Program-made: the position numbers and the translations under genes | In this document: positions 38,411-62,825 of the stretch, in pieces | How positions within the stretch are numbered: position 1 is the stretch's first letter | Layout of the letters: every line of letters begins with the position of its first letter | The notes under the pieces: generated by a model | The model's input: the letters and a program-made list of their open reading frames with translations, nothing else | The model's database searches: none | Told to the model about the DNA's origin: nothing | From: an uncultured Mycobacterium sp. | Lineage (GTDB): Bacteria; Actinomycetota; Actinomycetes; Mycobacteriales; Mycobacteriaceae | Length of the DNA: 64,000 nucleotides | NCBI GenBank assembly: GCA_964511995.1 | Contig: CAZEHT010000001.1 | Coordinates: 33,919 to 97,918, forward strand | Direction: 5' to 3'

Positions 38411-38588
38411 TGGCCTGCGATGCGCGTCCGGGGAATCCGCGGTGCGGCGGCTTGTGTTTCCGCGCTGGGGGCGAGACTCATTTCTTTCGTCACCTTCGGC
38501 GGCCGTTTGGTTTGCTGAGCTGAGCACCGCGACTACCGAAAACGGGGGCATAATCAATGGTGACGGCGATCGTCAAGGAGTACCGGCG

Positions 38589-39330: not shown

Positions 39331-39822
39331 TCACATCGACCGGCCGCGGTCCCGGTGAGCGGCTGGCATGGACTGTTGGCGCCAGCGGTCCAGCAGTGCC
39401 GGGATCTCCAAGAGCAGGAAGGCGTAGAAGTCGCGCATCTGGGTGAGGCGCTGCCCGGCCAGGCTGTTCGACCCGGTGGCGGTGATCCCGGCCTCGGCGG
39501 CCGCGAGCATGGCTGAAATGACTGCGTTCTGGTTGGTGAATAGGAGCGCCCAGGCGTCGTCGCGCAGCCGGTAGTGGTCCCGGCGGCTGGCCGGCGCGGG
39601 CACGCGCTCGGCGAGGCCAACCGAGGTGAGCATTTTGATGGCGCCCGAGATCGCGCCCGAGCTCGCCTGGAGTTGGTCGGCCAGTTCGCCCATCGTCATG
39701 GTGGGCTGTTCGGTGAACAGCAGGGCGGCCAGAACCCGGGCGGTCATGCGTTGCAGCCCGTGGCTGGACAGAACGAGCGCAAGCTGCTCGGCACCTACGT
39801 TCGGATCTGCGGCCTCGGTCAC
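39331..39822 (-). CDS. GbsR/MarR-family regulator
   Basis: HGLQRMTARVLAALL..TMGELADQLQASSGAISGAIKML..GLAERVPAPASRRDHY. Confidence 0.82.
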   Translation of the reverse strand: MTEAADPNVGAEQLALVLSSHGLQRMTARVLAALLFTEQPTMTMGELADQLQASSGAISGAIKMLTSVGLAERVPAPASRRDHYRLRDDAWALLFTNQNAVISAMLAAAEAGITATGSNSLAGQRLTQMRDFYAFLLLEIPALLDRWRQQSMPAAHRDRGRSM

Positions 39823-39847
39823 CGGAATCCCCTCCCCGCCACGATCC

Positions 39848-39876
39848 TTCACAAATCTCTGAAGCTTCAGTATAGT
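39848..39876 (+). promoter_or_regulatory. Sigma-A-type promoter with a palindromic operator in the spacer
   Basis: TTCACA (39848-53), 17 bp spacer, TATAGT (39871-76); perfect palindrome CTGAAGCTTCAG at 39859-39870. Confidence 0.6.
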
Positions 39877-39978
39877 GGCTGCCGGTGCTCCGGGAAGTCT
39901 GGTCGGAATCTGGTAACCGTATGCGCGGTGACGGCGGTCCGACCGACGTGCCGCGCCGACCCAAAGGCGATTGAGCAT

Positions 39979-40884
39979 ATGCAGACCGTCACGGCCGCAG
40001 CCACATCATCGAGCGTCACGACCGAGGTGATCCGCGTCCGCGGGCTCACCTTCACCTATCCGAAGTCACCCGAACCGGCGGTGCGTGGCATGGACTTCAC
40101 CGTCGGCCGCGGCGAGATCTTCGGATTCCTCGGCCCCAGCGGCGCGGGCAAATCCACCACCCAGAAGCTGCTCATCGGCCTGCTCCGCGGACACGGCGGT
40201 GAGGCGGCCGTGTGGGGGCGGGACCCGCTCGCGTGGGGCCCGGACTATTACCAACGCATCGGCGTTTCCTTCGAGCTGCCCAACCACTACCAGAAGCTCA
40301 CCGGCGTGGAGAACCTACGCTTCTTCGCCTCGCTCTACGACGGCACGACGCTGGACCCGATGGAGCTGCTGGATGCGGTCGGCTTGTCCGACGATGCCAA
40401 CACCCGAGTTGGCAAGTACTCCAAGGGAATGCAGATGCGCCTGACGTTCGCGCGGTCGCTGATCAACGACCCGGAGCTGCTCTTCCTCGACGAGCCGACC
40501 TCCGGGCTGGATCCGGTCAACGCGCGCAACGTCAGGAACATCATCGCGGATCTGAAGGCTCGCGGCCGCACGGTCTTTCTGACGACCCACGACATGGTCA
40601 CCGCCAACGAGCTGTGCGACCGGGTGGCCTTCGTGGTCGACGGCCAGATCGTCGCCCTCGACACGCCCGCCGAGCTGAAAATTGCTCGTAGTCAACGGGT
40701 TGTGTGCGTGGAGTACCGCGGCAACAACGGCGGCCTCGACACCGCGGAGTTCGCGATGGACGGCCTGGCCGACGACCCGGCGTTTCACGAAGTGCTACGG
40801 AATCACCACGTCGAGACCATTCACAGTAGGGAAGCCAGCTTGGACGACGTCTTCGTTGAGGTCACCGGGAGGCGGCTGTCATGA
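39979..40884 (+). CDS. ABC transporter ATP-binding subunit, Rv2688c-like (fluoroquinolone efflux family)
   Basis: GPSGAGKST, YSKGMQMRL, LFLDEPTSGLDP; TEVIRVRGLTF and HHVETIHSREASLDDVFVEVTGR match Rv2688c as recalled. Confidence 0.88.
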   Translation: MQTVTAAATSSSVTTEVIRVRGLTFTYPKSPEPAVRGMDFTVGRGEIFGFLGPSGAGKSTTQKLLIGLLRGHGGEAAVWGRDPLAWGPDYYQRIGVSFELPNHYQKLTGVENLRFFASLYDGTTLDPMELLDAVGLSDDANTRVGKYSKGMQMRLTFARSLINDPELLFLDEPTSGLDPVNARNVRNIIADLKARGRTVFLTTHDMVTANELCDRVAFVVDGQIVALDTPAELKIARSQRVVCVEYRGNNGGLDTAEFAMDGLADDPAFHEVLRNHHVETIHSREASLDDVFVEVTGRRLS

Positions 40885-41591
40885 CCCGGCTGACGAGTGC
40901 CCTGCGGCTCGAGCTGACCCTTCAAATCCGGCAGCGGTTCCTGCACGCCGCGGTGTTTTCCGGACTCATCTGGCTGGCCGTGTTGCTCCCGATGTCGCGA
41001 AGCCTGCGCCCGATCGCCGAGCCCTACATCCTGCTGGGCGACATCTCGATCATCGGGTTCTTCTTCATCGCGGGCACGGTGTTCTTCGAGAAGCAGGAGC
41101 GCACCCTGGGCGCGGTCATCTCCACCCCGCTGCGGTTCTGGGAATACCTGGCCGCCAAACTTACAGTGCTGCTGCTGATCTCACTATGCGTGGCTTTGGT
41201 CGTCGCCACCATCGCCCACGGATTCTCCTACCGCCCCGCCCCGCTGCTGATCGGCGTCGTGCTCGGGACGCTGCTGATGCTGCTGGTCGGGTTCACCACG
41301 TCACTGCCCTTCGCTTCGGTCAGTGATTGGTTCCTGGCCGCGACCATCCCGCTGGCGGTGATGAACCTGCCGGTGCTGCACTACTGCGGCCTGTGGCCCA
41401 ACTCGCTGTTGTACCTGATCCCCACGCAGGGGCCGCTGCTGCTGCTCGGGGCGGCCTTCGACCAGGTCACCCTGACGCCGTGGCAAACCGTGTACGCGGT
41501 GGCGTACCCGGCGGTGTGCGTGGCGGCGCTGTGTGGGGCGGCCAAGGCGCTGTTCAGCCGCTACGTCATCGCAAAGTCCGGAGGAATGTGA
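40881..41591 (+). CDS. ABC permease, Rv2687c-like
   Basis: MTRL..ALRLELTLQ.RQ.FLHAAVFSGLIWLAVLLPM, FFEKQERT, LYLIPTQGPLLLLGAAFDQV. Confidence 0.86.
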   Translation: MTRLTSALRLELTLQIRQRFLHAAVFSGLIWLAVLLPMSRSLRPIAEPYILLGDISIIGFFFIAGTVFFEKQERTLGAVISTPLRFWEYLAAKLTVLLLISLCVALVVATIAHGFSYRPAPLLIGVVLGTLLMLLVGFTTSLPFASVSDWFLAATIPLAVMNLPVLHYCGLWPNSLLYLIPTQGPLLLLGAAFDQVTLTPWQTVYAVAYPAVCVAALCGAAKALFSRYVIAKSGGM

Positions 41592-42343
41592 TGACGTTAT
41601 CTACAGCTGGTGCAAAGGCATTCGCCGCGTTTGGTCGCAACGACCTGCGCGGCACCTATCGTGACCCACTGCTGGTCATGCTCGTCGCCGCACCCGTCAT
41701 CTGGACCAGCGGCGTCGCGCTGCTCACACCGCGCGTCACCGGGATGCTCGCCGACCGCTACGGGTTCGACCTGATCCCCTACTATCCGCTGATCTTGGCT
41801 GGATTCCTGCTGCTGACCAGCATCATCATCGCCGGCGGGCTGGCGGCATTCCTCGTTTTGGACGAGGTCGACGCCGGCACCCTGACCGCGTTGCGGGTGA
41901 CCCCGGTCCCGCTGTCCACCTTCTTCGCTTATCGTGCGGCAACGGTCATGGCAGTGACCACCGTCTACGTGGTCGCGACCATGTCGTTCAGCGGGATCCT
42001 CGAGCCCGGCCTGGTTCCGGCCCTGATTCCGATCGGGCTGCTCGCCGGGCTGTCGGGGGTCGTGACGCTGCTGCTGATCCTGGCCGTGGCCGGCAACAAG
42101 ATTCAGGGCCTGGCCGCGATCCGCGCCCTGGGCATGCTCATCGCCGGCCTGCCGTGCCTGCCGTGGTTCATCGATTCCGGCTGGAACCTGGCCTTCGGCG
42201 TGCTGCCGCCCTACTGGGCCGCCAAGGCATTCTGGGTCGCCAGCGACCACGGCATGTGGTGGCCGTACCTCCTCGGCGGCGTCGTCTACAACCTGGCCGT
42301 CACTTGGCCGCTGTTCCGGCGCTTCCTCGCCAAGAACACCTGA
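41591..42343 (+). CDS. ABC permease, Rv2686c-like
   Basis: AFGRND.RGTYRDPLLVML, ALRVTPVPLS, VLPPYWAAKAFWVASDHG. Confidence 0.86.
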   Translation: MTLSTAGAKAFAAFGRNDLRGTYRDPLLVMLVAAPVIWTSGVALLTPRVTGMLADRYGFDLIPYYPLILAGFLLLTSIIIAGGLAAFLVLDEVDAGTLTALRVTPVPLSTFFAYRAATVMAVTTVYVVATMSFSGILEPGLVPALIPIGLLAGLSGVVTLLLILAVAGNKIQGLAAIRALGMLIAGLPCLPWFIDSGWNLAFGVLPPYWAAKAFWVASDHGMWWPYLLGGVVYNLAVTWPLFRRFLAKNT

Positions 42344-42444
42344 CCAGCGATCGGCGCCAACCAGAAGGTCGGCGCTGCTAAGTTGGACGTCGGTGTGCCG
42401 GGAAGCCTGGTCGGCGTTTCGTTCCCGCGACCCAGGAGTACACC

Positions 42445-43308
42445 GTGAGCAATGCTGCCGAACAAACCGCGCTCGGTCCGATGGTCATCGTCGCCGCCGA
42501 GCAGCACGAACCGTCACCGTTGATCCGCGATCCGTGGGCGCAGCGCCTGCTTCCGTTGAGCGGTCGCATCGCCGCCGGGATCACACGGTGGTCACCGGCG
42601 CGGCGGGCGATGATCGCCGCGACCGAGAAGAAGTTTCCCGGCGGTTGGTCCAGCATCTTGTGCCGCAAGCGCTACATCGACGATCAATTGGTCAATGCCG
42701 TCGCAAAAGGTATTGACGTGGTTGTCATTCTGGGCGCAGGCTACGACACCCGGGCGTATCGCCTGCCCGAGCTCGCCGGGATCGCGGTCTGCGAAGTCGA
42801 TCTGCCCACCAACATCGCCCGCAAGGCCGCGGCGCTGCGGCGGTGCTTCGGCCGGGTGCCGCCCGCAGTGACGCTGCTTCCCGTCGACTTCGAAACCGAT
42901 GACCTCGGCGACCGGCTGGACCACGCGGGCTACGGACCGGGGGTCCGTACCTTCTTCGTCTGGGAGGCCGTGACTCAATACCTGACCGAGGCTGCCGTGC
43001 GGAAAACCCTGCACCATCTGGCCGACGTGGCGCACGGCAGCTGCTTGGCGTTCACCTATGTTCGCAAGGACTTTCTGGACGGAAGCTCGCCGTACGGCGC
43101 CCAGGGCACCTACCAGGATTTCGTGGTGAAACAAGGGCTCTGGCGTTTCGGCCTCCTCCCTGAGCAGGTCGCCGGTTTCCTCGCTGAGTACGGATGGCAC
43201 GAACGAGAGCAGGCCGGGCCCGACGAATACAACGCCCGCTACCTCCAACCGGCCGGCCGGCACAGTCCGGCATCGGAGATCGAGCGTGCGGTCTACGCCG
43301 AACGCTGA
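42445..43308 (+). CDS. SAM-dependent methyltransferase (leucine-carboxyl-MTase-like mycobacterial family)
   Basis: VVILGAGYDTRAYRL, EVDLP, LLPVDF, FFVWEAVTQYL. Confidence 0.85.
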   Translation: MSNAAEQTALGPMVIVAAEQHEPSPLIRDPWAQRLLPLSGRIAAGITRWSPARRAMIAATEKKFPGGWSSILCRKRYIDDQLVNAVAKGIDVVVILGAGYDTRAYRLPELAGIAVCEVDLPTNIARKAAALRRCFGRVPPAVTLLPVDFETDDLGDRLDHAGYGPGVRTFFVWEAVTQYLTEAAVRKTLHHLADVAHGSCLAFTYVRKDFLDGSSPYGAQGTYQDFVVKQGLWRFGLLPEQVAGFLAEYGWHEREQAGPDEYNARYLQPAGRHSPASEIERAVYAER

Positions 43309-43328
43309 GGCGGCGTTCCTCGAATTCC

Positions 43329-44618
43329 CTAGCCCAGGACGAAGTACCGCAGCCACAGGTAGACCGCGGAAAGCGCAATGGAGACTGCGGTGACGACCGC
43401 GCCTTTGCGGGTGAATTCCCAAAAGGAGATGGGATTGTCTGCGCGGCGCGCGATTCCGAGCATGACGACGTTGGCGCTGGCCCCGACGGCGGTCAGGTTT
43501 CCGCCGAAGTCGGCACCGAGGGCAAGGGCCCACCACAGTGCGTCCGGGTGGACCTGATCCGGCATGGCCGCGGCCAGCTCGCTGACAATCGGTGTCATCG
43601 TCGCGACGTAGGGGATGTTGTCGATGATGCCCGACACCGGTGCAGACACGCCGAGGATCAGCATCACCGTCAGTAACGCATTCCCGCCGGTCGCCGCGGT
43701 CGCCGATCGGGCCAGCTCATCGACCACCCCGGTTTTCACCAAGGCGCCGACCATGATGAACAGCCCCACGAAGAACAGCAACGTCTCCCACTCCACGCCG
43801 GACAGGTAGTCGCTGCGCTCCAGTCGCGAGATCAGCACGAGGACGCCCGCGCCGAGCAGCGCCACGATCGACGGTTCGATGTGCAGCACCCCGTGGGCGA
43901 TGAAGGCGGTGAACACCAGGACCAGGACAACCCCGCACTTGACGAGCAGGCGCGGATCGCGGATGGCCTCGCGCTCCTCCAGCGACATGACATCGGCGAC
44001 CCGCTCGGCGTCGACGTGAAACGAGCCGCGGAACAGGCGCGGCAGCATCGCAACGAAGACGACCATCACGATCACGACGATCGGCGTCATGTGGACGAGG
44101 AAGTCGTTGAACGTCAGACCGGCCCGGCTGGCGATGATGATGTTGGGCGGGTCGCCGACCAACGTCGACGCGCCGCCGATGTTGGAGGCGAACACCTCGG
44201 CGATCAGGAAGGGTGCGGCGTTGATCGCGAGCCGGTCACAGACCAGCAGCGTGACCGGGGCGATCAGCAAGACGGTGGTGACGTTGTCCAGCAGGGCTGA
44301 GGCGAACGCGGTGACCAGGACCAGCAGGATCATGATCCGCAGCGGGGAGCCCTTCGCGCGTTTGGCCGCCCAGATCGCGATGTATTCGAAGACGCCGGTC
44401 TGCCGCAGTACGCTGACGATGATCATCATCCCGAACAGCAGAAAGATGACGTCCCAGTCGATTCCGGTCTCTCGGGAGTAGAACACGTCGTCGGAGCCGA
44501 GCACGCCGACGGCGACCACGATGGCCGCGCCGGCCAGCGCGATGAGGGTCTTGTTGACGCGATCGCTGGCAATCAGCGCATAGGCGATCACGAACACCGT
44601 GATCGCGAGGACACTCAT
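43329..44618 (-). CDS. ArsB/NhaD-family permease, Rv2684 (ArsA)-like
   Basis: 429 aa; [49 protein letters not shown]. Confidence 0.87.
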
Positions 44619-44625
44619 CGGTCGT

Positions 44626-45123
44626 TCAGTGCTTCAGCGCCGCAGCAAGCAGGCGCGATGCGGTGATCACACCGTGCAACTTGCCATCCTTCATCACGGC
44701 TATCAGCGGACTTCGCAGCCGCGCCATCAGCGCGGCCACTTCGATGATCGTGTCATCGGCGTTGGCGGCGGGCACGTCGAGCAGGTGCTCGGGCAGCACC
44801 TCGCGCACCGTCTTGCCGCCCAACTTCTCGGCGGCGCGGTCGGCGGTCGATTCGTTGAGCACACCGGCCAGTGAGGGATCGTCTTGGACGTACTTGGGCA
44901 CGATGAACCGCACCACCTGGGAGGCCGGCAGCACGGCGTATGGACGCCCCGAGGAGTCGGTGACGACGATGCCGGGCAGCTGGTGCTCGGCCAGCATCCG
45001 GGCGGCGTCGAGCGCATTGGAGTCGATGGTCACCACCGGGAAGTCCTCGGCGATCTCCTCGGCATGCATGTCAGCACCATACGACCGTGTTGCGGCGTCC
45101 AACCCCGTTGCGGCAGTAATCAT
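44626..45123 (-). CDS. CBS-domain protein, Rv2683-like
   Basis: [51 protein letters not shown]. Confidence 0.85.
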
Positions 45124-45135
45124 CGTCTCCTTCGG

Positions 45136-46770
45136 TCATGAGCTCAGGTCCCGGCGCGAGTATCCGGCGATGCCCAGTGCGATCAGGACCGCGCCGATGA
45201 CGGCGAGCGCTGTGATGGCCGCCCAGTCGGGCGGCGCGTCCGGCACGGCCGCTAGGTGCCCGAACGGTGAAAGATTCACCAACCAGCTCGGTGCCTGCGT
45301 GCCCTGGGTGATCACGTAGAGCAGGAACCCGCCAACCCCTGGCAGCGAGCCGACGGCGCCGACCGCGGACGGGAACCAGCCGAGGGCCAGCGCGGCGGCT
45401 CCGAGCCCGAGCGACGCGATCGGCGCGGTGTTCAACGCGCCGGCAACCGCCGCCCCGATACCCATTGGGGCACCGGTGATTGCGGTTCCAGTCCACATGG
45501 CAAGTGCGGCAGCGACATGCAAACCCACGACACCGGCCATGGTGACCGCGACCTCGCTGCACACCAGACGCGTTCGCGACTTCGGCGCGGCGAACAGCGG
45601 AGTCCAGCGGCTGGCCCTCTCGTCGGCGACCATGGCGGCCAGCCGCGTCGCCGCGTACAGACCGGTGGGAACGGCCAGCAAGCTGAACAGCGCCGCGGCG
45701 AATCCATCGACCGAGTCGAAGCCGCCGAAGCCGGCGCCGGCGGCCAGCTCGGCGAAGCGGGGGTTGGCGTCGAAGAATTCAAGGATCGACGCGAACAGGG
45801 CGCCGACGAGAAGGAAGTACACCCCGATACCCGTCGCCCAACCGATGGTGGGCCGCATCGCGCGGCGCACCGCGAACCCGCCAATCGACCCCAGCAGCGC
45901 GTTTCGGGGTGCCCGGCTCGTCGCCACCGCCACCAACCCGGAGCCGACGTCGCGGCGCCGCGCACATCCAAGTGCAGCCCCCGCGAGCAGAACCGGAAAA
46001 CCGGCCAGCACCAGCAGCGGGGCCACCCGGTTGTCGGCGTAGGGCGCGGCGCGCGCCACCAGGCCGAACGGGGTTGTCCACGCCGCCCACGCCAGTGCAG
46101 GCACGCCATCGGCGAGCATCCGCAGCAGCAGACCCACACCCAGCACACCGGTTGTTAGACCGACCGCGGCGGATCGGGTCGGCATGATCTGGGCGGCCAG
46201 CACGCCTGCGGCGGCGAAAGTCAAGGTGACGCCCAGGACTCCGGCGGCATGGACCATGGCCCCGGTGGCGTCGGTACCGGCCGCCACCAGCGCCACTGCG
46301 ACCGCCGCGCCGATCGCCAGCGCCGATCCCACGAGTGCGCCCAGGCAGCGCAGCACCACATCGACGGTTCGCAGCCGGCCGGCGAGCAGAAGATCCCAGC
46401 GTCCGGCTTCTTCCTCACCACGGGTAATGCGGGTGGCGCTGAGCAGAATCCATACGCCGGCGAGGACCAGCAATGGAGTGCCGGTGCGCCACACGGTGAA
46501 CCCGCCGGCGTCGTCCAAGGCAACCGGTGTGCCGAACAGGATTCGGATCGCCGGGTTTTCGACGAGCGCCCGCAGACCGGATTGATCGATCGTGCCCCGG
46601 AACGTCGTCTGGTACTGGACGGCGACGACAGCCGACATTGCCCCGCAGATGACGGCGACGATCAGCGCACCGCGGCGAACCTGGCGCATGGCGAGCCCAA
46701 CGACGGCCCGGGCGGCCGCCGCCGATGGCACCGGCGCCACCGAGTACACCGGTAGTGCAGCGGCGGTCAT
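45136..46770 (-). CDS. ABC-2 exporter permease (polyketide/ionophore exporter type)
   Basis: Multi-TM; DDAGGFTVWR, TRGEEEAGRWDLLLAG, WLVNLSPFGHL..VP. Confidence 0.8.
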   Translation of the reverse strand: MTAAALPVYSVAPVPSAAAARAVVGLAMRQVRRGALIVAVICGAMSAVVAVQYQTTFRGTIDQSGLRALVENPAIRILFGTPVALDDAGGFTVWRTGTPLLVLAGVWILLSATRITRGEEEAGRWDLLLAGRLRTVDVVLRCLGALVGSALAIGAAVAVALVAAGTDATGAMVHAAGVLGVTLTFAAAGVLAAQIMPTRSAAVGLTTGVLGVGLLLRMLADGVPALAWAAWTTPFGLVARAAPYADNRVAPLLVLAGFPVLLAGAALGCARRRDVGSGLVAVATSRAPRNALLGSIGGFAVRRAMRPTIGWATGIGVYFLLVGALFASILEFFDANPRFAELAAGAGFGGFDSVDGFAAALFSLLAVPTGLYAATRLAAMVADERASRWTPLFAAPKSRTRLVCSEVAVTMAGVVGLHVAAALAMWTGTAITGAPMGIGAAVAGALNTAPIASLGLGAAALALGWFPSAVGAVGSLPGVGGFLLYVITQGTQAPSWLVNLSPFGHLAAVPDAPPDWAAITALAVIGAVLIALGIAGYSRRDLSS

Positions 46771-47690
46771 CGTGGGGCCTGGCCGTAAAAGTCGAGGAAG
46801 ATCTCCTCGAGCGTCGGCTCGCGCATCACCAGTGCGGTGACATCTGCACAGGCGAGCGCCCGCAGGACAGGTGCCGGTGGCCCGACCAGGTGAAACCGCA
46901 GACGCTGCCCGTCGAGGCGCTCCACATTCGACACCCCGTCCACATCGTCCAGGATCGGTGCCGCGTCGCGGTGGGACACTTCCACGACGGTTCGGCGCAG
47001 CCGGCGCAGATCGGCGACGCTGTCGATCTCGACGAGCCGCCCATCCCGCAGGATGGCCACCCGGTCGCAGACGGCCTCGACCTCGGCGAGTTGGTGCGAG
47101 CTGAGAAACACCGTCTGGCCCCGCTCCCGGGCCTCGGTGACGCAGCGGCGAAACTCGCGCTCCATCAAGGGATCCAGGCCGCTGGTCGGCTCGTCGAGCA
47201 CCAGCAGCGGCGCCCGGGTGGCGAACGCGGCGACCAGCGCGACCTTCTGCCGGTTGCCCGTCGAGTACGTCTTGCCCGGTCGGTCCAGGTCGAGTTGGAA
47301 GCGGTCGACAAGCTCCGCGCGGTACTCGACGTCAAGGCGCGCACCGACATTGCCGAGTAGCTCAAGGATCTCGGCGCCGGTCAAGGCCGGCCACAGCGCA
47401 ACGTCAGCCGGCACGTACGCGAGGTGACGGTGGGATCGACGGACATCGCCGGCCGCATCGCCGAAAACAGTTGCGGTGCCAGCGTTCGGGCGGATCAGGC
47501 CCAGCAGCACGCGAATCGTCGTGGACTTACCCGCGCCGTTGGGGCCGAGGAACCCGAACACCTCCCCGGCGGCCACGGTGAGCCTGAGGTCGTCGACGGC
47601 CAGGATGCGGCCGAACCGCTTGGTCACACCGTCGATGCAGATAGCGAAATCAGACGCGATGCGCGCGGGCACTGCCGAAATGGCGGACAC
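46767..47690 (-). CDS. ABC transporter ATP-binding subunit
   Basis: GPNGAGKST, YSTGNRQKV, LVLDEPTSGLDP. Confidence 0.9.
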   Translation of the reverse strand: MSAISAVPARIASDFAICIDGVTKRFGRILAVDDLRLTVAAGEVFGFLGPNGAGKSTTIRVLLGLIRPNAGTATVFGDAAGDVRRSHRHLAYVPADVALWPALTGAEILELLGNVGARLDVEYRAELVDRFQLDLDRPGKTYSTGNRQKVALVAAFATRAPLLVLDEPTSGLDPLMEREFRRCVTEARERGQTVFLSSHQLAEVEAVCDRVAILRDGRLVEIDSVADLRRLRRTVVEVSHRDAAPILDDVDGVSNVERLDGQRLRFHLVGPPAPVLRALACADVTALVMREPTLEEIFLDFYGQAPR

Positions 47691-47818
47691 GGGAACCTTT
47701 CATGAGTCGGCAAACTGACTGCCGACCCGACTTCCCGGCGCACCAAGACAGAATGTACTCCCGTCAGGCGTCCGGCACCAGAACACACTGGGGGCGTTCC
47801 CTCGAGTGATCGACCCCT

Positions 47819-48185
47819 TTAGGGGAACTGCAAGTGGGTGAGCAGCATGGCGAGCGCCCACACGAACAGTGCGGTCATGAACACGATCTCGCGCCACGCC
47901 AGTCCCGGTGTGGCCTGGATGGCATACGACATGAGTTTGCGTGGTGGCGTGGGTGTTTCGGGCATCTGCTCCGCAGGCAGGACGCGGCTGAACCGGCGGA
48001 AGAAGATTTGCATGGTCAGCATGCCCACGATGAGGCCGGTGATGAAGCTGAGGTAGTGCATCTGCGTCAGGAACAACAGCAACACCAGTACCACGATGAT
48101 GATCAAGGTGACGGTGTCGTAGATGCTGATGATTCGCCCGCCGCGTTCGTAATAGGAGGCAATCCGGCGGATCCGGGTGGGATAG
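47819..48185 (-). pseudogene. 5'-truncated membrane protein gene
   Basis: YPTRIRRIASYY..., with hydrophobic helices and a stop at 47819; the 5' end is replaced by IS sequence. Confidence 0.55.
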
Positions 48186-48328
48186 GGCCAGCAGTTGCTC
48201 AGCGAGCTGCCGTTGATCCAGTTCCATCGCCACGGCATCGAGTGTTTCTGACATCGTCAGTCCTTCCCGCCAAGCTCACGCCCGGCGTGTCAGACCAAGA
48301 TCAGATCCACCGTTCTTCTGACAGTCCC
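48186..48328 (-). mobile_element. IS256-family left end plus the first 23 codons of transposase
   Basis: Minus strand begins GGGACTGTCAGAAGAACGGTGGATCT, then RBS GGAAGGA and MSETLDAVAMELDQRQLAEQLLA, typical of mycobacterial IS256 transposase N-termini; the frame then turns into unrelated sequence. Confidence 0.68.
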
Positions 48329-48736
48329 TCACCGCCCCGGGTGTTTGCGTGGCATCGAAACTACGACGTTGGCTCCGGAGGTTTCGTGGGTCAGTTCGGT
48401 GATCACCGCTGAGAGCGTTCTGATCTTGCTTCGCAGTTGAGCATTTTCGGCAGCCATTTCCTGGTTCTGATCACGGGCCTGTGCAAGTTGTCGTTGCAGA
48501 GCCTCGGCATTCGGGGTGACGGGTCCGCACCCGACCGTCGCCTTGAACTCGTTCAGCAGATCGCTGTGATGTTCGTAGAGTCTCTGCCGTGATATTCCCG
48601 ACTCATCGGCCAAGGCCACCACGGTGTGTGCGCCGTTGCTCTGCTCGGCTTTGTTGTCCCGGAGGCGGTTGATAGCGGCCCGAACCCGCTGGCGTTCCTC
48701 ATCGTTGCCTGCCGCGGCATCGCCCGTGAGCGTCAT
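48329..48736 (-). CDS. Small HTH plus coiled-coil protein, TnpC-like (gene D)
   Basis: 135 aa; TVVALADESGISRQRLYEHHSDLL HTH-like segment, then heptad coil LQRQLAQARDQNQEMAAENAQLRSKIRTL; ATGA-coupled to gene C. Confidence 0.72.
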   Translation of the reverse strand: MTLTGDAAAGNDEERQRVRAAINRLRDNKAEQSNGAHTVVALADESGISRQRLYEHHSDLLNEFKATVGCGPVTPNAEALQRQLAQARDQNQEMAAENAQLRSKIRTLSAVITELTHETSGANVVVSMPRKHPGR

Positions 48737-50874
48737 TCGTTTTCCTCGTCGCGCTGAGGGATCGTCGTCGGCCGGCTAGATTCGTGTTCTGCGAGGGCCT
48801 TTCGGTGCTCGATCAGGCGGAACTGAATTCGTTGCCGCAGTGGTTCAGGGAGTGCGAGAGTCGCCAGGTCACGTTCGAGTGCTGTGACGTGCTGGCCAAG
48901 GTTGCCGGCGTCGCGGTCGGTGCGGGCGGCGTTGACGCAGCCCAAACGGCACCGACTCCAGAAGGGTTCAGCGGAGCTGTCGGCAGGTTCCAGGCAGGCT
49001 GCGGTGGCGCGCCGGAACACGCACGTCACGACCGCGCCGTGGTGGATCTGCAAGTCGGGGTTCGATAGTGCGTTGTCGATTTGCCTCTTGGTGGTCACCG
49101 TCAAACCCGCGAATGTGCTTGCCCTGGCAACGCGGGCCCGGTACTCATCGGCAGCCGGACCGGAGACGTGCTCGCCGCACTCCAGTCTTTGGGAATCGTC
49201 GTGGATGATCTCAGCACGGTGCAGAAACTGTTCGAAGGTGATGTCGTCGAGGAATCCTGCATCAGCTCCGCCGGCATAACCTTGGATCATTTGTGTGTGC
49301 AGGTGGCCGTATTGCGTTGCACCGGCGATCGTTCCACCGGGCCGCCGGACGATATGCCATGCCAGTGTGCGTCGCAATCGCGGCACCTGGATTGCGCCGT
49401 GCGGATCGGCGCCGATCAGCGGATGGCTGACTGCTGGAACGACCTCACGGTCGAACCATTCAATGAAGCTGGCGATGTCAGTGTTGATGGAGCCGGGTGT
49501 TCTCGTCCGGGTAGCGCCGAAGCGAAATTGGTCCTCGGAGAACAGCTTGAAACCCGGAAAGAGTAGATCGCTCACCGTGATCTGCTCAAGAACGCTGACG
49601 GCATGGGCGGTTTCGTCGGTCACGACCCACGGGATCGTGGCCGGCGATCGGTCCCTGCGCGGGCCTTCGGCCTTCAACTGGTGGCCGGACATCAGTGTCA
49701 ACGCCAACTTGGAGTCCCGGCTGATGCACCCGCGTCGCAGGTTGAGCGCCTCTCCGGTACGGACACCCGACAGGTAGGCGATCACGACGAAACAGGCCGT
49801 CGTAACGTGGCGCAGCAGTTCGACGAGTTCACTCGCATCGACAGGGAATGTGCGCCAGCAGTGCGTGCCGATGGCGCCGAATGTGCTGGCGCGCAACATG
49901 TCCACGTCGATCGGCAACCCATACTTGGCTAGCAGGACCGGGGTCTCTTTCATGCGTTTCAGTTCGGTGTGGTGCATCCACCCACCCACGGCCAACCCCA
50001 TCAGATCGACACTGGTCGTGTCGCCCGTCCGAATACCTGGCAGTGAGGCATCGTTGCGGCCCAGTGCAGCAAGCACGCATTCAAGTTGCTGCTTAGTTGT
50101 ATCGAACACCGACACCGTGCGAGTACGAGCCCGACGAATGTCCGGCGCGACCTGATGGGCTAGATACCGCATCGCGAGAAGGTTGCGCGCTGCGGGAAGG
50201 AGATCGGCGGCGACCGTGTGGGTGACCACCAACGCCGCCGAGAGCAGCGGCTCCATGACATCGGGATGAATGCGCGGGGTTGTGTTCGGCTTTCCCCAGG
50301 ATGACTCATAGTGGGCGAGCCCTCGTGCACTCGCACCGCCCCACAACGGACCCGCGGGGAGCCGGCAATGCGCGGGCAGGACATCCCGGTACAGGTGCAG
50401 ACGCTTGATGGCCTGCAGCGCCGAGCGTTTGGATTCGGCGCTGACACCGCTGGCCTCGGTGACGTGGTGCAGATAGTCGTCGAGGTGTCCGGCACTGACC
50501 CGATCGAACGATGTGACACCCCGCTCCAGCAGCCACGTCGTGAACCGGCGTAACGGCACCAGCTCACCCCAGATCGTCTTGATGTGCGGATAGAGCGATC
50601 GGGCACTGTCAAGGCGGGGTGCGTCGTCGACGATGTTGAGCAGGGCGAACAGGTAGAGCTTGCAGGCATGGCGAAATGGCATCGGGAACCCCTCCCAGTG
50701 CACGGCTTGTCCTGCACTGTGGCGGTCTTCGATCGCCGCGGACAGATCCCACACCGGGTCGCCGAATCGGCATCGGATCCCGTCGATGTGAAGCGTGCGG
50801 TTGACCACGACCTCTGTTGCGGGACCGACGTCGAGACCTGCCACGACGTCTGGCGCTTGAGCTGGGTGGGTCAT
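48733..50874 (-). CDS. Large tyrosine-recombinase-family protein with C-terminal Cys cluster (gene C, 713 aa)
   Basis: LSGVRTGEALNL, VPRLRRTLA, QYGH, QGY; CVFRRATAAC...RCRLGC; ATG at 50874 overlaps the gene B stop. Confidence 0.8.
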   Translation of the reverse strand: MTHPAQAPDVVAGLDVGPATEVVVNRTLHIDGIRCRFGDPVWDLSAAIEDRHSAGQAVHWEGFPMPFRHACKLYLFALLNIVDDAPRLDSARSLYPHIKTIWGELVPLRRFTTWLLERGVTSFDRVSAGHLDDYLHHVTEASGVSAESKRSALQAIKRLHLYRDVLPAHCRLPAGPLWGGASARGLAHYESSWGKPNTTPRIHPDVMEPLLSAALVVTHTVAADLLPAARNLLAMRYLAHQVAPDIRRARTRTVSVFDTTKQQLECVLAALGRNDASLPGIRTGDTTSVDLMGLAVGGWMHHTELKRMKETPVLLAKYGLPIDVDMLRASTFGAIGTHCWRTFPVDASELVELLRHVTTACFVVIAYLSGVRTGEALNLRRGCISRDSKLALTLMSGHQLKAEGPRRDRSPATIPWVVTDETAHAVSVLEQITVSDLLFPGFKLFSEDQFRFGATRTRTPGSINTDIASFIEWFDREVVPAVSHPLIGADPHGAIQVPRLRRTLAWHIVRRPGGTIAGATQYGHLHTQMIQGYAGGADAGFLDDITFEQFLHRAEIIHDDSQRLECGEHVSGPAADEYRARVARASTFAGLTVTTKRQIDNALSNPDLQIHHGAVVTCVFRRATAACLEPADSSAEPFWSRCRLGCVNAARTDRDAGNLGQHVTALERDLATLALPEPLRQRIQFRLIEHRKALAEHESSRPTTIPQRDEENE

Positions 50875-52655
50875 GATGCTTCGAGGTTTCCTGTCAGCAG
50901 AAGGTTGACCGTCTGGTGATCGCTGTCGGTGATCTCGGCGCGCGCGGCGCTCAGCTGGGCCTGTTCGTACTCGGCGAAGATGTCGTCCAGTTGCGCGAGG
51001 GGACCCGCGTGATCGGCGATCCACTGCCCGATGGGCATCTCTTGGCGTAGGCCGCGAAGCCGGTCGGCCACGACCAGTTGAATCGGTAGGTGGCGCGGGT
51101 AGGCGCGGGCGTTGCTGCAGTCCAGGCATGCCATGAACGATTGGCGGCACTGTTGACCGTCGATCGGCGAGTGCTCGAAATCGGCGCACGTACCCAGCAC
51201 GGCGTCCTGGCCGGATCCAGTGTCGTCGGTTTCCGGTTGTACCGTGATCGACCGTCGAGCCAGTGCGCGCGCGACCTGCTCGTCGAGAGCTTCGGCGACG
51301 ATCTGGAAGCCCTCGTTCCTGACAGGGTCCATGCGACTCAGGTAGCGAGCCAACGTCGCCGGGGTGTGGGACGCGGGTTTTCGTACCTGCTCCAGGTAGG
51401 TCTTGCGCAGCCGATCCATGCTGATCCCCAGGAGCAAGCCGTCATGGTCGGCATCACCGGTCAACCATGGCGCCAACCATCGCCGTCGCGTATTCACTCC
51501 GGAGGCTGTGCTACTTATCCCGTATCCGAAGAGTTTCTGTTCCACGTAGTCGGGCTGGGCGCTGTAGTAGATGAAAGCGCGCTGGGTCCCGGTCAGCGCG
51601 CGGGCCGGTGCGGTCAGTTCCAGCAGCAACATGAAGACTCCGTACGCGGTCGTCAGTGACGCGTTGGCCACTGCCGCACGCCGATTCTGCCCACCAAGCG
51701 GCCGCAGTTCGGGGCGCAGCGCGGTCACCGGCACCGTCATGACCGACCGTTTCCCACGACGGGGCTTGTTGGCGTTGACGAACACGATGCCGGGTTCATC
51801 GGGGCTGCTGGCGTGTCGGTGCGGCGCGGGCAGCGAGTCCAGCGTCGACAGATTCAGGCCGGTCAGTCCAGCGAGGAGAACACCAAATGCCCATGCCTCG
51901 GCCGGGCTGAGATGCAGCAACGACTGAAGATGGCATCCACCGGCCGCCGCGGCTACCCGCCGCGTCACGTAAGCCCGTGCACCCGAAGCAGTACGAGGGA
52001 AATCTCCCTCGCGGGCGCAGTGATCGAGCACTTCGGCCAGACTACGATGGGAGTCTGCGCGGGGGAGGTGATCGAACTGTCCCGCGCGATAGTCGTCGAC
52101 CATCTGCCAATGAGTCCGCAATCGGGTACGTGCGCGCCGCACCATTCCCCGTGCCACGACGGTGATGCGGCGAAGCTCCTCGGTGGTATAGGGCTGGCGT
52201 GCGGTGTTCGTCTTCGGGTGACGCACGCGCGTGAACGCCTGGCGTGCCTCATCGGAGGTGACAGGACTACAACGCAGCAGCGTCTTCAGGCTATGCAACG
52301 GGCCAGGACCGCTGGGTACCCGACACGATAAGGCGAGGAGCCGGGCATCCGCGGCGGACAAATCTGCCAGTCCCTGCATTCCTGGCCGGTTTTCGGCGAG
52401 CCAGCAGCACGCGTGCCGGGCAGACTGCCACAGCGCGCCAGCACCCCTCAACCGCTTGGATACGCCCAGCACACCGGTGGCGTCCTCGAAGGCGATCGCG
52501 AAATCGCGGCGGATTCCGTCTTTGCCCGGCAGGGATCCGAAGTCGAAGTCCTTCGACTGAGTGCCATCCTCGCTGACGAACGTCACGATCAGCCCGCGTC
52601 GCCGCAATACCGGTCGCCATGCCGGATCCGGCTGCGCCGCCCGGTGACCCGTCAC
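50871..52655 (-). CDS. Degenerate tyrosine-recombinase-fold protein with Cys cluster (gene B, 594 aa)
   Basis: LTGLNLSTL at the box I position (Asn for Arg), NKPRRG, MDRLRKT, SHT, RYL; CADFEHSPIDGQQCRQSFMACLDC. Confidence 0.68.
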   Translation of the reverse strand: MTGHRAAQPDPAWRPVLRRRGLIVTFVSEDGTQSKDFDFGSLPGKDGIRRDFAIAFEDATGVLGVSKRLRGAGALWQSARHACCWLAENRPGMQGLADLSAADARLLALSCRVPSGPGPLHSLKTLLRCSPVTSDEARQAFTRVRHPKTNTARQPYTTEELRRITVVARGMVRRARTRLRTHWQMVDDYRAGQFDHLPRADSHRSLAEVLDHCAREGDFPRTASGARAYVTRRVAAAAGGCHLQSLLHLSPAEAWAFGVLLAGLTGLNLSTLDSLPAPHRHASSPDEPGIVFVNANKPRRGKRSVMTVPVTALRPELRPLGGQNRRAAVANASLTTAYGVFMLLLELTAPARALTGTQRAFIYYSAQPDYVEQKLFGYGISSTASGVNTRRRWLAPWLTGDADHDGLLLGISMDRLRKTYLEQVRKPASHTPATLARYLSRMDPVRNEGFQIVAEALDEQVARALARRSITVQPETDDTGSGQDAVLGTCADFEHSPIDGQQCRQSFMACLDCSNARAYPRHLPIQLVVADRLRGLRQEMPIGQWIADHAGPLAQLDDIFAEYEQAQLSAARAEITDSDHQTVNLLLTGNLEAS

Positions 52656-54160
52656 ATTGGGACTGTCAACACACGAGGTTCACCAACGCCGACTGTTGCG
52701 ACAAGCCGCTCAAGGGATTGTCGATCGTCGGCATCCATCAACGCGATGAGCTCCTCCACTTGCAATGCCTGAAACGGCTCGAGATAGACGCTGCGTGTCA
52801 CCTCGGCACTTCGGTGTCCGAGAAGTGTCGCCAGCAGAAACCAGACATCGCCAAGCTGATTACGGAAGTCGCGCTGCTCCTGCTTGGTCAACATGTCGGT
52901 ACGGCGCCACGCCACGAACGTGGCGATGCAAAACCACCGCAGCGCAAAGGAATGCCTCAGCATGTGGGGACGGCACCACAACGGAGTTCCCCCTGATGGT
53001 GCAAGCGCTTTCGCGACCCTAGAGTTCGCGCGGTCGAATGTCTTGTACCAGGAATGTTTGGGGCGAGGTGTCCCGTCGTGATTGAGCCACAGCCACATCG
53101 GTTCCAGGCCATCACGTCCCCGGCGGAACAACGTCATTCGTGTGGACGGCCCGAGCGCTTCCAGCCGAACAGTACGACGCGATCCCGTCGCATCAATGAC
53201 CTCCAGCTGCCCATCCTTGCGGACGTGTTCAACGACCCAGCGATCGGCTAACTGCTCATAGCGACCGGCACGTTGCGCACGGGCGATGGCAGCAGTGCGA
53301 CTACCTTCCTGCAGATAAAAGTGGACTTGTTGGGCGACGCGGCGCCGCATCCAGAACGCTCGACCGCTACCGCCCTTCGCGCAATGAGACGCCACGCGCG
53401 AACGCACGAGCCCCTCAGAGCCCGACTCGGGCACCTCGATGGTCAACATGCTGGCCCACTCGCCGATTCGTAAACCCGTCCCGAACAACCCCTCCACGAA
53501 CGCGACGTCGCGATCCTCAGTAGCTCCCCGCCAATCGTCGCGCGGCACGCCCTCCCTCGTGAAACCGCGCAACCCCAGGTTCCGCCACAACCGAAATGCT
53601 TGCGGGGTAAGCCACTTCACGTCGGCCCTGCGCATTCCCGACGGTGTGCTCTCCAACACGATTTGACCCCCGCCCATCCAAGACGTGGCAATCGCACGGG
53701 CCCGGACGGGGTTGTCGATTCCGTGCTGCTCGGCCGCCCACGAGTAGAAACCGCGGATTGCCGCGCGATCGACACAGAAACTAGTTGGACTCACGTGCTG
53801 AGGATTCTCCTCAGCCGACAAACGCCATTCCTTAAACGCAGCCAGTTCCGATCGCGATGCCTGATCCCATCGAACGCCCATCGCGTGCAGAAAATCCAGC
53901 CACACCTTCAACGACAAAGCGTAACGACGCAACGTCCCCGTTGCTCGTCCCCGCACCAGCGGATCTCGCCAGTAGGCATTCACCAACACATCCGCCCGGC
54001 CCCACGGATCAAGGAAGAACGGAGTGCCATCACGCGCACCGTTTCGCTTCGCCCAGGTCTTGACATCACCCAACCCTGGAACCAGGTCGTCCACCGATAC
54101 GAACCGCTGCTGGAAGTCGTAGAAATGAAGAGTCCAACCATCAGCCGAAGCATCCGCCAT
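52652..54160 (-). CDS. Tyrosine recombinase/integrase with complete active site (gene A, 502 aa)
   Basis: GTGLRIGE, AKGG, PHMLRHSFA, LLGH, SVYL (R-K-H-R-H-Y); N-terminal core-binding-like helices TLRRYALSLKVWLDFL; RBS AGGAGG. Confidence 0.9.
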   Translation of the reverse strand: MADASADGWTLHFYDFQQRFVSVDDLVPGLGDVKTWAKRNGARDGTPFFLDPWGRADVLVNAYWRDPLVRGRATGTLRRYALSLKVWLDFLHAMGVRWDQASRSELAAFKEWRLSAEENPQHVSPTSFCVDRAAIRGFYSWAAEQHGIDNPVRARAIATSWMGGGQIVLESTPSGMRRADVKWLTPQAFRLWRNLGLRGFTREGVPRDDWRGATEDRDVAFVEGLFGTGLRIGEWASMLTIEVPESGSEGLVRSRVASHCAKGGSGRAFWMRRRVAQQVHFYLQEGSRTAAIARAQRAGRYEQLADRWVVEHVRKDGQLEVIDATGSRRTVRLEALGPSTRMTLFRRGRDGLEPMWLWLNHDGTPRPKHSWYKTFDRANSRVAKALAPSGGTPLWCRPHMLRHSFALRWFCIATFVAWRRTDMLTKQEQRDFRNQLGDVWFLLATLLGHRSAEVTRSVYLEPFQALQVEELIALMDADDRQSLERLVATVGVGEPRVLTVPM

Positions 54161-54249
54161 TCCCGGCCCCCTCCTACGTCACGACCATTGCCCCATCATC
54201 ACCGACGCACTTCCCCAAACGTCTTCGACACGCCTGTCGGGCAGAGAAC

Positions 54250-54998
54250 CGGCGACTGGATGTTTGCCGGGCAGATCACCACTGCTTCCGGCCGTATCGC
54301 GCCCGCGAGCCCGGCACCCAGGGTGGCCTTGTGTGCCGTGAGGGTGAAAGTTGCCGTCGTGGGGGCACCCGGATCCGTATTGTTGCCGCACTCGACCACA
54401 GCCGAAGCGCCGGGGACCGAATCGACCGGCTCGCAGACGCCCGGCGCGTAGCCGGCAGGAAGCAGACGCAACAATCGTGCTTCGGCTTCGGTGTCGCGGC
54501 GCGAGGCCGGGGTGGCGGTTGAGCTGTGTGGTTGTCACCGGTGTTGTGACCGATGGCGGCATCGCCTCGTTCGCCTCGGTGCCGGGTGACGGTCGATTCG
54601 TAAGCCAGAAAGCCAGTCCGCCGGCCGCTCCGAAAATGACCAGGGCACCCGCACCGAGCATGGCGCGTCGCGCACGGGCTCGGCTGGCCGCGCGGGACCG
54701 GGATCCCGGAAACTCGAAGGGTTCCGGAGCGAGGGGAAACTCGAGGTCGCCCATCAGCGGCGACGACGGCACCGGTGATGCGAAACATCTCGACGAGGCT
54801 CATCCGCCGAGGTACCTGGATCAGCGCCGGCCGGGGTGGCACTCCTTGCAGGACTCCAGCCGGAACCCCACCCGAAGGAGGCGAGGGTGGGCAGCGGCTC
54901 GGATCGTCGGTGTCGGTCCTGGATTCCACCTCATCGGCGGTCGGAGCCGACCGCGGCTGCCCAGCTGGTGGCGGATCTGGCGGCATAGGCCCGATCAC
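54250..54998 (-). pseudogene. Pro-rich single-pass membrane protein with Ser/Thr-kinase-type extracytoplasmic domain, frameshifted and truncated
   Basis: Pieces lie in three frames: Pro-rich N-terminus; TM GAGALVIFGAAGGLAFWL; LLRLLPAGYAPGVCEPV...VECGNNTDPGAP...VVICPANIQSP, cut off at ~54249. Confidence 0.6.
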
Positions 54999-61649: not shown

Positions 61650-62825
61650 CTACCCCAGAATCAACCCCGACGTCGGCACACCCGTCCCGGCCGTGACCAG
61701 CACATGCTCAACACCGTCGACCTGGTTGACCGATGTCCCGCGCAGTTGCCGCACACCTTCGGCGATGCCGTTCATACCGTGGATGTAGGCCTCACCTAGC
61801 TGACCGCCATGGGTGTTGATCGGCAACCGCCCACCGATCTCGATCGCGCCGTCGGCAATGAAGTCTTTGGCCTCACCCTTCCCACAGAACCCCAGCTCCT
61901 CCAACTGGATCAAGGTGAACGGGGTGAAATGGTCGTAGAGCACCGCCGTTTGGATGTCAGCCGGCGACAGTCCGGACTGTGCCCACAGCTGGTCGCCGAC
62001 CAAGCCCATTTCGGGCAAGCCGAGTTCTGGCCGGTAGTAGCTGACCATCGTGTACTGGTCGACGCCGGAGCCCTGCGCCGCCGCCGTGATGACGGCCGGC
62101 GGCTGCTTCAGATCCTTGGCCCGCTCCGCAGTAGTGACCACGAGCGCGACCGCACCGTCGGTCTCCTGGCAGCAGTCCAGCAGCCGCAGTGGCTCTGCGA
62201 TCCACCGCGAGTTCTGGTGGTCCTCGATAGTGATGGGCTTCTGGTAGAAGTAGGCCTTCGGGTTCTTGGCAGCGTGCTTACGGTCGGCCACCGAGATCGC
62301 GCCGAAGTCCCGGCTGGTCGCGCCTGAGGCGTGCATGTACCGCCGGGCGATCATCGCCACCTGGGCGGCTGGCGTGGACAGACCGTGCGGATAGGAGAAC
62401 GCGTTGTCGGCCTGCGTCGAATTTGCCGTTGCGCCGGCAGAGCCCGCCAGCGCGGTCTGCACCTGACCGAACCGCATGCCGGAACGCTCGTTGAACGCTC
62501 GGTAGGCGACCACACACTCGGCCACCCCGCTGGCCACCGCGATCGCGGCCTGCTGCACCGTGCCACATGCCGCGCCGCCGCCGTAATGGATCTGGGAGAA
62601 GAACTTCAGTTCGCCGACGCCCGCGGCGCGTGCAACTGCCTGCTCGGTGTTGGAATCCATGGTGAAGGTGACCAGGCCGTCGACATCGGACGGCGACAGG
62701 CCGGCGTCGGCGACGGCGTCCAGGACGGCTTCGGCGGCGAGCCTGAGCTCACTGCGTCCCGAGTCCTTCGAGAAGTCGGTGGCACCGATGCCGACGATGG
62801 CCGCCGCACCCGACAGGCCTGTCAT
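61650..62825 (-). CDS. ltp2: Lipid-transfer/aldolase Ltp2 (Rv3540c ortholog)
   Basis: GIGATDFSKDSGRSELRLA, PLRLLDCCQETDG, NTHGGQLGEAYIHG. Confidence 0.92.
   Translation of the reverse strand: MTGLSGAAAIVGIGATDFSKDSGRSELRLAAEAVLDAVADAGLSPSDVDGLVTFTMDSNTEQAVARAAGVGELKFFSQIHYGGGAACGTVQQAAIAVASGVAECVVAYRAFNERSGMRFGQVQTALAGSAGATANSTQADNAFSYPHGLSTPAAQVAMIARRYMHASGATSRDFGAISVADRKHAAKNPKAYFYQKPITIEDHQNSRWIAEPLRLLDCCQETDGAVALVVTTAERAKDLKQPPAVITAAAQGSGVDQYTMVSYYRPELGLPEMGLVGDQLWAQSGLSPADIQTAVLYDHFTPFTLIQLEELGFCGKGEAKDFIADGAIEIGGRLPINTHGGQLGEAYIHGMNGIAEGVRQLRGTSVNQVDGVEHVLVTAGTGVPTSGLILG

Follow-up and report, generated by a model that had tools for sequence, protein, structure and literature searches.

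What kind of mobile element is served by four overlapping minus-strand genes of an uncultured Mycobacterium sp., three of which resemble tyrosine recombinases, and where does this element begin and end? The genes lie in a stretch of 64,000 nucleotides (NCBI GenBank assembly GCA_964511995.1, contig CAZEHT010000001.1, positions 33,919 to 97,918 of the forward strand), which is the window referred to throughout and whose coordinates are used below. A first-pass annotation of this DNA had regarded them as its best candidate for an undescribed system. In our reading, to which we give a probability of about 85%, the stretch 34476-54249 is an integrated element of the SE type (strand-biased circularizing integrative element), on a distant actinobacterial branch of the SE family. 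This family was described through SE-6945 and SE-6283 (Nonaka et al. 2022, PMC9345347; Idola et al. 2023, PMC10214605). In its members intA is followed by a degenerate tfp, then by a large intB and finally by a small srap, and the recombination of attL with attR needs all four genes (PMC9345347, PMC10214605). The SEs of Vibrio follow a strand-biased copy-out reaction with a 6-bp footprint and no empty site, and SE ends are imperfect terminal inverted repeats bearing the motifs C and C′, of 13-19 bp (PMC9345347, PMC10214605).

The recombination module is made of four open reading frames (ORFs), here called A to D, all of them intact in the ORF list (502, 594, 713 and 135 aa) and joined by 4-bp overlaps on the minus strand: GTGA at 52655-52652 between A and B, ATGA at 50874-50871 between B and C, and ATGA at 48736-48733 between C and D. 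A GGAGG Shine-Dalgarno motif is found upstream of the start of gene A. Gene A is a predicted active tyrosine recombinase, with Pfam matches to Phage_int_SAM_1 (2e-9) and Phage_integrase (1.6e-5) and with the catalytic Arg in GLRIGE, HxxR in HMLRH, His in LGHRS and Tyr in SVYLE. Although the frame of gene C is open upstream as far as 51189, a length of 713 aa is found both in the homologues and in the public gene call. Residues R372, K401, R501/R502, H524 and Y533 are invariant in its homologue alignment, its motifs read SGVRTGE, QLKA, RLRRT, YGH and QGYAG, and a C-terminal extension bears Cys618/627/642/646; Pfam gives only a faint integrase signal, and the protein is probably a large active recombinase. 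In gene B the first catalytic arginine (Arg I) is replaced by Asn268 within TGLN, a change invariant across 20 homologues, and K297, R417, H430 and Y438 are retained in the homologue alignment together with a C-terminal Cys4 cluster (C490/C503/C510/C513); scans of B against Pfam and NCBIfam returned no match. Gene D, which weakly matches HTH_7 and DUF6262 in Pfam, is predicted to encode a small DNA-binding coiled-coil protein.

The AlphaFold (AF2) model of C (pLDDT 79.7) firmly predicts a tyrosine-recombinase fold, as its top 16 Foldseek matches are all tyrosine recombinases (XerA, Cre, XerH, IntI, lambda Int) with probabilities up to 1.0. The model of B (pLDDT 72.8) contains disordered stretches and is in part of low confidence. 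In this case the evidence comes from profiles: hhalign comparison of diverse alignments recovered B and C as paralogues (probability 92.5%, E 5e-7, 455 columns), having in common an xRLR[RK]T box and the C-terminal Cys cluster. An earlier comparison of the two with shallow alignments had been negative and became positive once the alignments were more diverse, and searches of the B and C profiles against PDB sequences gave no significant match. Protein B may reasonably be taken as a recombinase-fold protein, a profile-level paralogue of C. Altogether, the first-pass annotation was right about the module itself: the four unbroken frames and their GTGA, ATGA and ATGA overlaps appear in the ORF list, the motifs it named in A and C and the degenerate box I of B are all present in the homologue alignments, and the recombinase fold it proposed for B and C is recovered, by Foldseek for C and at the profile level for B.

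The relationship with SEs was examined with a reference of seven SE loci from plasmids, collected through the coordinates in the supplement of the SE paper and tblastn, and with hhalign run without secondary-structure scoring. Each gene of the window matches its positional counterpart: A and IntA align with a probability of 92.6% (E 4.4e-7, 361 columns), B and Tfp with 93.9% (E 1.5e-7, 442 columns), C and IntB with 99.6% (E 7e-25, 563 columns), and D and Srap with 97.8% (E 1.3e-12). None of the cross pairs tested (B-IntB, C-Tfp, A-IntB, C-IntA) exceeded 10%, so that each gene matches its positional counterpart only. The comparisons of B with Tfp and of A with IntA were negative when the SE profiles held two sequences, and positive with the seven loci. 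The alignment of B with Tfp pairs TGLN with TGQN, which places an Asn at Arg I in both proteins, and further pairs the hairpin Lys, LRKT with LRQT, the Tyr and the C..F.xC.xC cluster. Sizes are also similar, as SE proteins measure 398-545 aa (IntA), 567-620 aa (Tfp), 663-720 aa (IntB) and 135-173 aa (Srap). The window element thus has the order intA-tfp-intB-srap at its left end, a second gene whose 594-aa product (about 570-620 aa in SEs) combines a recombinase-like core with an incomplete RHRY set, and a large, catalytically complete recombinase followed by a small TnpC-like protein. Moreover, as in SEs, its cargo follows srap and extends towards the right end, its ends are imperfect inverted repeats, it uses few sites within genes and it carries no conjugation genes.

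The order of the module also bears on the proposal of the first-pass annotation, namely a Tn554-family transposon that acquired a recombinase-fold subunit and may work as an undescribed hetero-oligomeric system. Tn554, whose family is found in Staphylococcus and Enterococcus, encodes the ordinary recombinase TnpA, the large recombinase TnpB and the small TnpC, with no counterpart of B (PMC10214605). The window element resembles it in combining an ordinary and an abnormally long recombinase with a small TnpC-like protein and in its site-specific insertion without target duplication. In this line, actinobacterial three-gene Tn554-like elements, in which a short and a long recombinase gene adjoin each other and TnpC is also encoded, were described by Van Houdt et al. 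in 2012 (PMC3414803) and share genera and plasmids with elements of the window type, and DUF6262 is weakly matched both by D and by one SE Srap. On the other hand, in Tn554 as described in the literature tnpA and tnpB are adjacent, whereas a 594-aa gene stands between the ordinary and the large recombinase at every locus examined. The layout with the extra subunit is exactly the SE layout, and B is homologous to Tfp, signature motifs included, so that the system is not an undescribed one. We therefore regard the Tn554 explanation as very improbable. What stands of it is a Tn554-related design with an additional degenerate recombinase-like subunit; the layout is that of SEs. The claim of novelty falls at the level of architecture, because the SE family is already named and experimentally characterised (PMC9345347, PMC10214605), an outcome that the annotation itself had listed as speaking against it. 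Its statement that the cassette is neither a three-gene Tn554 nor a RIT (recombinase in trio) agrees with the gene count, the protein sizes and the presence of gene B. RITs likewise are putative transposable units with three recombinase-family genes in a row, but these encode proteins of 315-410 aa, all with the catalytic Tyr, with no small fourth gene and with 34-bp terminal repeats (PMC10214605); the window has proteins of 502, 594 and 713 aa, a B without Arg I and a fourth gene D.

The first-pass annotation had placed the cassette at 48329-54160, and these coordinates hold for the recombination module, but it missed the rest of a 19.8-kb island with its cargo (Table 1). The whole element was delimited through the two halves of an interrupted gene that flank it 19.8 kb apart. 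In the window the attL junction reads ...CAGTCGCC|GGTTCTC and the attR junction ...GTGAACA|CCCGGTCCGTGG, where the bar marks the limit of the element. The 25-mer of the left end occurs once in the window, with 0 occurrences expected by chance, and is near-invariant over 13 related loci with differing flanks. At the other end, the motif ...CGACACTTGTCGGTTAGGTGAGTGAACA|cccggtccgtgg precedes the 3′ half of the target gene, which was recognised at 34472-34293 (GPWRRNATPQ...YAWWESHS) by tblastn with an intact kinase tail (49% identity, E 5e-15). The right-end motif, TGTCG-N-(A/G)TGAAC(A/T)|CCCGG, is conserved in three elements, that is, in the window, in the occupied locus of M. lehmannii (L001) and in a 15,276-bp element on a plasmid of M. 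avium (L045). Since the window holds both the 3′ half of the target and this shared motif, the element extends from 34476 to 54249. When the right end TGTTCACTCACCTAAC-CGACAAGTGTCGAGG is reverse-complemented, it pairs with the left end GGTTCTCTGCC-CGACAGGCGTGTCGAAG, and the resulting terminal inverted repeats, an SE feature, consist of GTTC(T/A)CT plus CGACA..TGTCGA(A/G)G.

A definition of ends and target, of the kind that the first-pass annotation had suggested, came from the comparison of the occupied M. lehmannii locus with an empty allele. The occupied locus (L001) differs from the empty one (L062) by an insertion of 11,822 bp, with an alignment overlap of 2 bp. The empty site attB reads cagtcc-cccgg-cccgtgg, attL reads cagtcgcc|GGTTCTCTGCCCGACAGG and attR reads ...TGTCGAGTGGGCGAATGAACT|cccggcccgtgg, which confirms both the ends and the target; no target duplication is visible beyond the short CCGG-containing core. 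Intact orthologues of the kinase that is interrupted in M. lehmannii read ...VVVCPGNIQSP|GPWRRNDT...WWGTHS across the site. Among 14 close copies, 12 have a left flank encoding one Cys-rich extracytoplasmic domain that ends in ...VVxCPGNIQSP at the junction, and 13 have the NIQSP|GPW codons, within a single domain family, as their insertion site. In locus L012 this site is occupied in the reverse direction, in agreement with a CCGG core that is palindromic. The element therefore integrates at few selected sites, as SEs do, and the NIQSP|GPW junction belongs to a conserved extracytoplasmic domain of Ser/Thr kinases and related membrane proteins, for which the Pfam scan of the target ectodomain gave no family.

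Insertion has a defined consequence for the target protein. The interrupted ORF runs 16 codons into the element (VLCPTGVSKTFGEVRR, then a stop) at 54199-54249, and the same occurs in 13 loci. The resulting tail of 16 residues, whose overlap with the terminal repeat explains its conservation from one element to the next, takes the place of the last 61 residues of the target protein. As a separate observation, the 5′ part of the target gene in the window shifts frame between the membrane anchor and the Cys-rich domain, through either a frameshift or an assembly error.

Two other delimitations were considered and discarded. The first was a cargo-less element of 5.95 kb ending at 'GACTGTC' and with CTGCC|CCGG as its left junction, a model based on the fact that the nucleotide similarity of the relatives stops about 10 bp past the D stop codon. 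It was ruled out by the intact orthologues and by the comparison of the occupied and empty alleles: CPGNIQSP belongs to the target and not to the element, and 'GGGACTGTC' in the window is the tip of an IS256-family remnant and not an element end. Local alignment of the ends so misplaced had shown no inverted repeat. The second was a right end near window position 23455, suggested by a match to the reverse complement of the left end and rejected because its flank does not continue the target gene.

With the whole island in view, its architecture can also be compared with that of the GInts (Bardaji et al. 2017, PMC5385486), which encode ginA, ginB, a degenerate ginC and a small ginD and need all four genes for excision and for integration. 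Under this explanation the window would contain a ginABCD operon at one end, followed by cargo and by a poorly conserved, AT-richer far end, with short imperfect direct repeats. The general design is indeed the same, with four cotranscribed genes for three recombinase-like proteins and a small TnpC-like one, diverse cargo starting from the stop codon of the fourth gene, and a tripartite island inserted site-specifically within a gene (PMC5385486); moreover, the GC content over the final 50 bp of the window element is lower than in the DNA around them. GInts also form a circular intermediate, which is likewise proposed for the window element. Nevertheless, the gene order differs, as the degenerate protein is the third in GInts (GinC) and the second in the window module, and the GInt proteins are smaller (401/437/543/132 aa in E. 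coli Sakai). Families A-D reached at most 3% in hhalign against the Sakai proteins (ECs_3512-3509), compared with the 93-99.6% obtained with the SE counterparts; the Sakai comparison used single sequences and is a weak negative alone, but it fits the difference in gene order. That the element is a GInt appears very improbable.

Taking the element as an SE, a mechanism can be proposed by homology to SE-6945 and SE-6283. The four proteins together would recombine attL with attR into a circular copy, in which the ends would be joined as GAGTGAAC-ACCCG-GTTCTCTG, an arrangement that would have the typical layout of a recombinase core site. The attS junction expected in such a circle is ...GTGAAC(A/T)-core-GTTCTCTGCC. 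The circle would then integrate at the same motif elsewhere; recombination itself occurs at the short CCGG-containing core. The need for all four proteins and the circular intermediate would both carry over from the SE experiments.

A scan of one genome per species found 42 loci, all in Actinomycetota, with the order A-B-C(-D) kept in nearly all of them and identities from 93% down to about 30%. The recurrence of the same four genes in the same order at most of these loci, a check that the first-pass annotation had suggested, indicates that the cassette is not due to chance. In 15 close relatives, nucleotide similarity is confined to the part corresponding to window positions 54285-48320, and the surrounding DNA differs. 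Homologues of B, all annotated as 'hypothetical' and without a Pfam domain, occur in Mycolicibacterium, Rhodococcus, Nocardia, Streptomyces, Amycolatopsis and others, plasmids included, and distant plasmid versions retain the four genes and the 4-bp overlaps. Moreover, A-B-C trios with significant BLAST matches to A, B and C were found on the alphaproteobacterial plasmids pISP0 of Sphingomonas, pTK1 of Sphingobium and pTiT37 of Agrobacterium. In pISP0 and pTK1 no recognisable D gene was found past C, and the trio sits in the conjugative backbone, between ArdC-like and zincin-like genes; in pTiT37 a short coiled-coil ORF lies past C. The element is mobile, as seen in its conserved module amid differing surroundings and cargo, in its occupied and empty alleles and in its plasmid copies.

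Several observations weigh against the assignment to the SE family. The actinobacterial members are known from their sequences alone. PSI-BLAST searches in the SE literature found no homologues of tfp or srap outside Gammaproteobacteria (PMC10214605), BLASTP of individual window proteins with SE proteins is insignificant except for box I of C and IntB (E 0.001), and the link is carried by profile-profile scores between 1e-7 and 1e-25. Foldseek ranks Cre, XerA and lambda Int first for the model of B, but with E values around 1. The terminal inverted repeats are imperfect and gapped. Finally, metagenome contigs holding the sequence revealed no circle, no empty-site variant and no excision junction. 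The survey in the SE literature relied on a PSI-BLAST-detectable tfp-srap block in a gammaproteobacterial host; in our case BLASTP of B with Tfp and of D with Srap is insignificant and the hosts are Actinomycetota, so the element is placed as a distant new member of the family and not as an ordinary one. That criterion is a survey rule and not a mechanistic one. The element differs from known SEs in several respects: its relatives live in Actinomycetota, and as A-B-C also on plasmids of Alphaproteobacteria, in place of Gammaproteobacteria, the sequences have diverged beyond the reach of BLAST and PSI-BLAST, and neither the end motifs nor the target (NIQSP|GPW, in a kinase ectodomain) are related to those of the Vibrio SEs.

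The metagenomic data also raise the question of whether the island still moves, or is a fixed or decayed relic whose recombinases might even serve a host function. The window belongs to a mycobacterium-like genome assembled from metagenomes. Coverage of the element in the source metagenomes is uniform and single-copy, no excision joints were seen there, and metagenome contigs compared with the region gave only chance joints, located in ABC-ATPase motifs. Signs of decay can be found in the IS256 remnant, the split CtaG gene and the frameshifted target gene. Against this, the four ORFs are intact with their catalytic residues conserved, and both termini are intact and match those of the relatives. 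Furthermore, even active SEs yield only about 0.001 circles per chromosome (PMC9345347), so that missing junctions in contigs say little. We regard a relic as quite unlikely, and the integrated SE-type element remains the preferred explanation.

The SE papers concluded that the host range is unusually narrow, with Gammaproteobacteria as the only hosts, and argued from it for host dependence (PMC9345347, PMC10214605). Clear four-for-four homologues in mycobacteria, Rhodococcus, Nocardia, Streptomyces, Nocardioides and Frankia, together with the trios on alphaproteobacterial plasmids, one of them a Ti plasmid, remove this restriction. What is new here is a distant actinobacterial branch with alphaproteobacterial relatives; the SE architecture was already known, and no new kind of system is involved. 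With this assignment, hundreds of clusters annotated as 'integrase - hypothetical - integrase - hypothetical' can be named, and M. lehmannii, M. septicum and M. chlorophenolicum become culturable Gram-positive hosts in which to study the mechanism, including the role of Tfp. A search with the B profile retrieved 1,079 cluster representatives at E ≤1e-3. A broader view, which we hold only tentatively and consider rather doubtful as a whole, would see SE-type machines as a superfamily of ancient origin present in several phyla, with about 1,000 Tfp-like clusters in Actinomycetota and on conjugative and Ti plasmids of Alphaproteobacteria. In this view the Tfp-like subunit, which keeps the Lys, Arg II, His and the Tyr nucleophile, may itself cleave DNA or serve as the partner at a half-site, and the element would target a conserved codon junction in the ectodomains of surface-sensor kinases and exchange their C-terminal 61 residues for a 16-residue tail of its own.

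Table 1. Features of the integrated element, its target gene and its cargo in window coordinates, with the coupled alphaproteobacterial loci in coordinates of their own
Feature	Coordinates	Strand	Remarks
Whole integrative element	34476-54249	-	19,774 bp; left-end module plus cargo, in frame within a membrane-protein gene
Target gene, 5′ part	54250-54772	-	Membrane-anchored; Cys-rich extracytoplasmic domain ending ...AVVICPANIQSP at the junction
Left terminus	54223-54250	-	Terminal inverted repeat GGTTCTCTGCCCGACAGGCGTGTCGAAG; contains the palindrome CGACA-N4-TGTCG
Gene A, IntA-like tyrosine recombinase	52652-54160	-	502 aa; SAM-like core-binding and catalytic domains
Gene B, Tfp-like degenerate recombinase-fold protein	50871-52655	-	594 aa
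Gene C, IntB-like large tyrosine recombinase	48733-50874	-	713 aa from ATG
Gene D, Srap/TnpC-like small protein	48329-48736	-	135 aa; N-terminal part HTH-like, C-terminal part coiled-coil-like
IS256-family remnant	48187-48328		Directly past the D stop codon; match to the transposase start of L013
Small membrane protein			Between the IS256 remnant and the ABC transporter
ABC transporter	45136-47690		Label from the translation
CBS-like protein	44626-45123		Label from the translation
CitMHS/ArsB-like permease	43329-44618		
LCM methyltransferase	42445-43308		
ABC-2 transporter	~39950-42343		
Two MarR regulators			Between the ABC-2 transporter and CtaG
Split CtaG (Caa3_CtaG)	37173-38141		Cytochrome oxidase assembly factor
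F420H2-dependent quinone-reductase-like gene	35905-36450		
FAD monooxygenase	34601-35797		
Right terminus	34476-34506	-	Terminal inverted repeat CCTCGACACTTGTCGGTTAGGTGAGTGAACA; end motif as in L001 and L045
Target gene, 3′ part	34290-34475	-	GPWRRNATPQHVSGTLVCGL...DALYAWWESHS, then stop codon
Alphaproteobacterial A-B-C loci (coupled)	L043 (pISP0) 2868-8214; L058 (pTK1) 321-5613; L044 (pTiT37) 4202-8151		

The cargo of the window element occupies 13.85 kb between D and the right end (34507-48328), and its labels are mostly backed by Pfam, those of the ABC transporter and the CBS-like protein being taken from ORF translations. The IS256 remnant represents the left end of an insertion sequence, with its terminal repeat GGGACTGTCAGA... 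and about the first 22 codons of the transposase (MSETLDAVAMELDQRQLAEQLLA); the same insertion sequence is complete in M. septicum, 64 bp past D (L013, from 14568 onward). CtaG is divided between two ORFs, one matching profile positions 1-120 and the other 127-235, and is probably a frameshifted pseudogene. Other copies carry different genes: sulfide-detoxification genes in the M. lehmannii element L001 (read from translations), mercury-resistance (mer) genes in a plasmid copy of M. chubuense, and arsenic-resistance (ars) genes in a plasmid copy of Streptomyces. The element of Nocardioides L027 (8350-20693) contains a 6.3-kb phosphonate/phosphite cluster (phnCDE-like, ptxD-like and phnM-like genes and a GntR regulator, read from translations), and the Nocardioides loci L030 and L034 have cargo-less elements at the same site. 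The target of this Nocardioides subgroup is formed by the IDAPE active-site codons of a thermonuclease-like gene, into which the element is inserted opposite to the orientation of the gene.

Two minor observations concern the surroundings of these elements. Beside the empty target site of Mycobacterium sp. pW049 (L061, 6489-9554), downstream of the uninterrupted target kinase, there is a cluster encoding a 388-aa integrase, a 567-aa protein without Pfam match and another integrase; the 388-aa integrase is matched by gene A, but weakly (24% identity, E 2e-4), and the cluster may be a different multi-recombinase element. In the window, about 345 bp at 61654-62000, 7.4 kb from the element, share 82% identity with a stretch located 600-900 bp upstream of the element's left end in two loci from metagenome-assembled genomes (L007, 2595-2941, and L011, 5911-6250).

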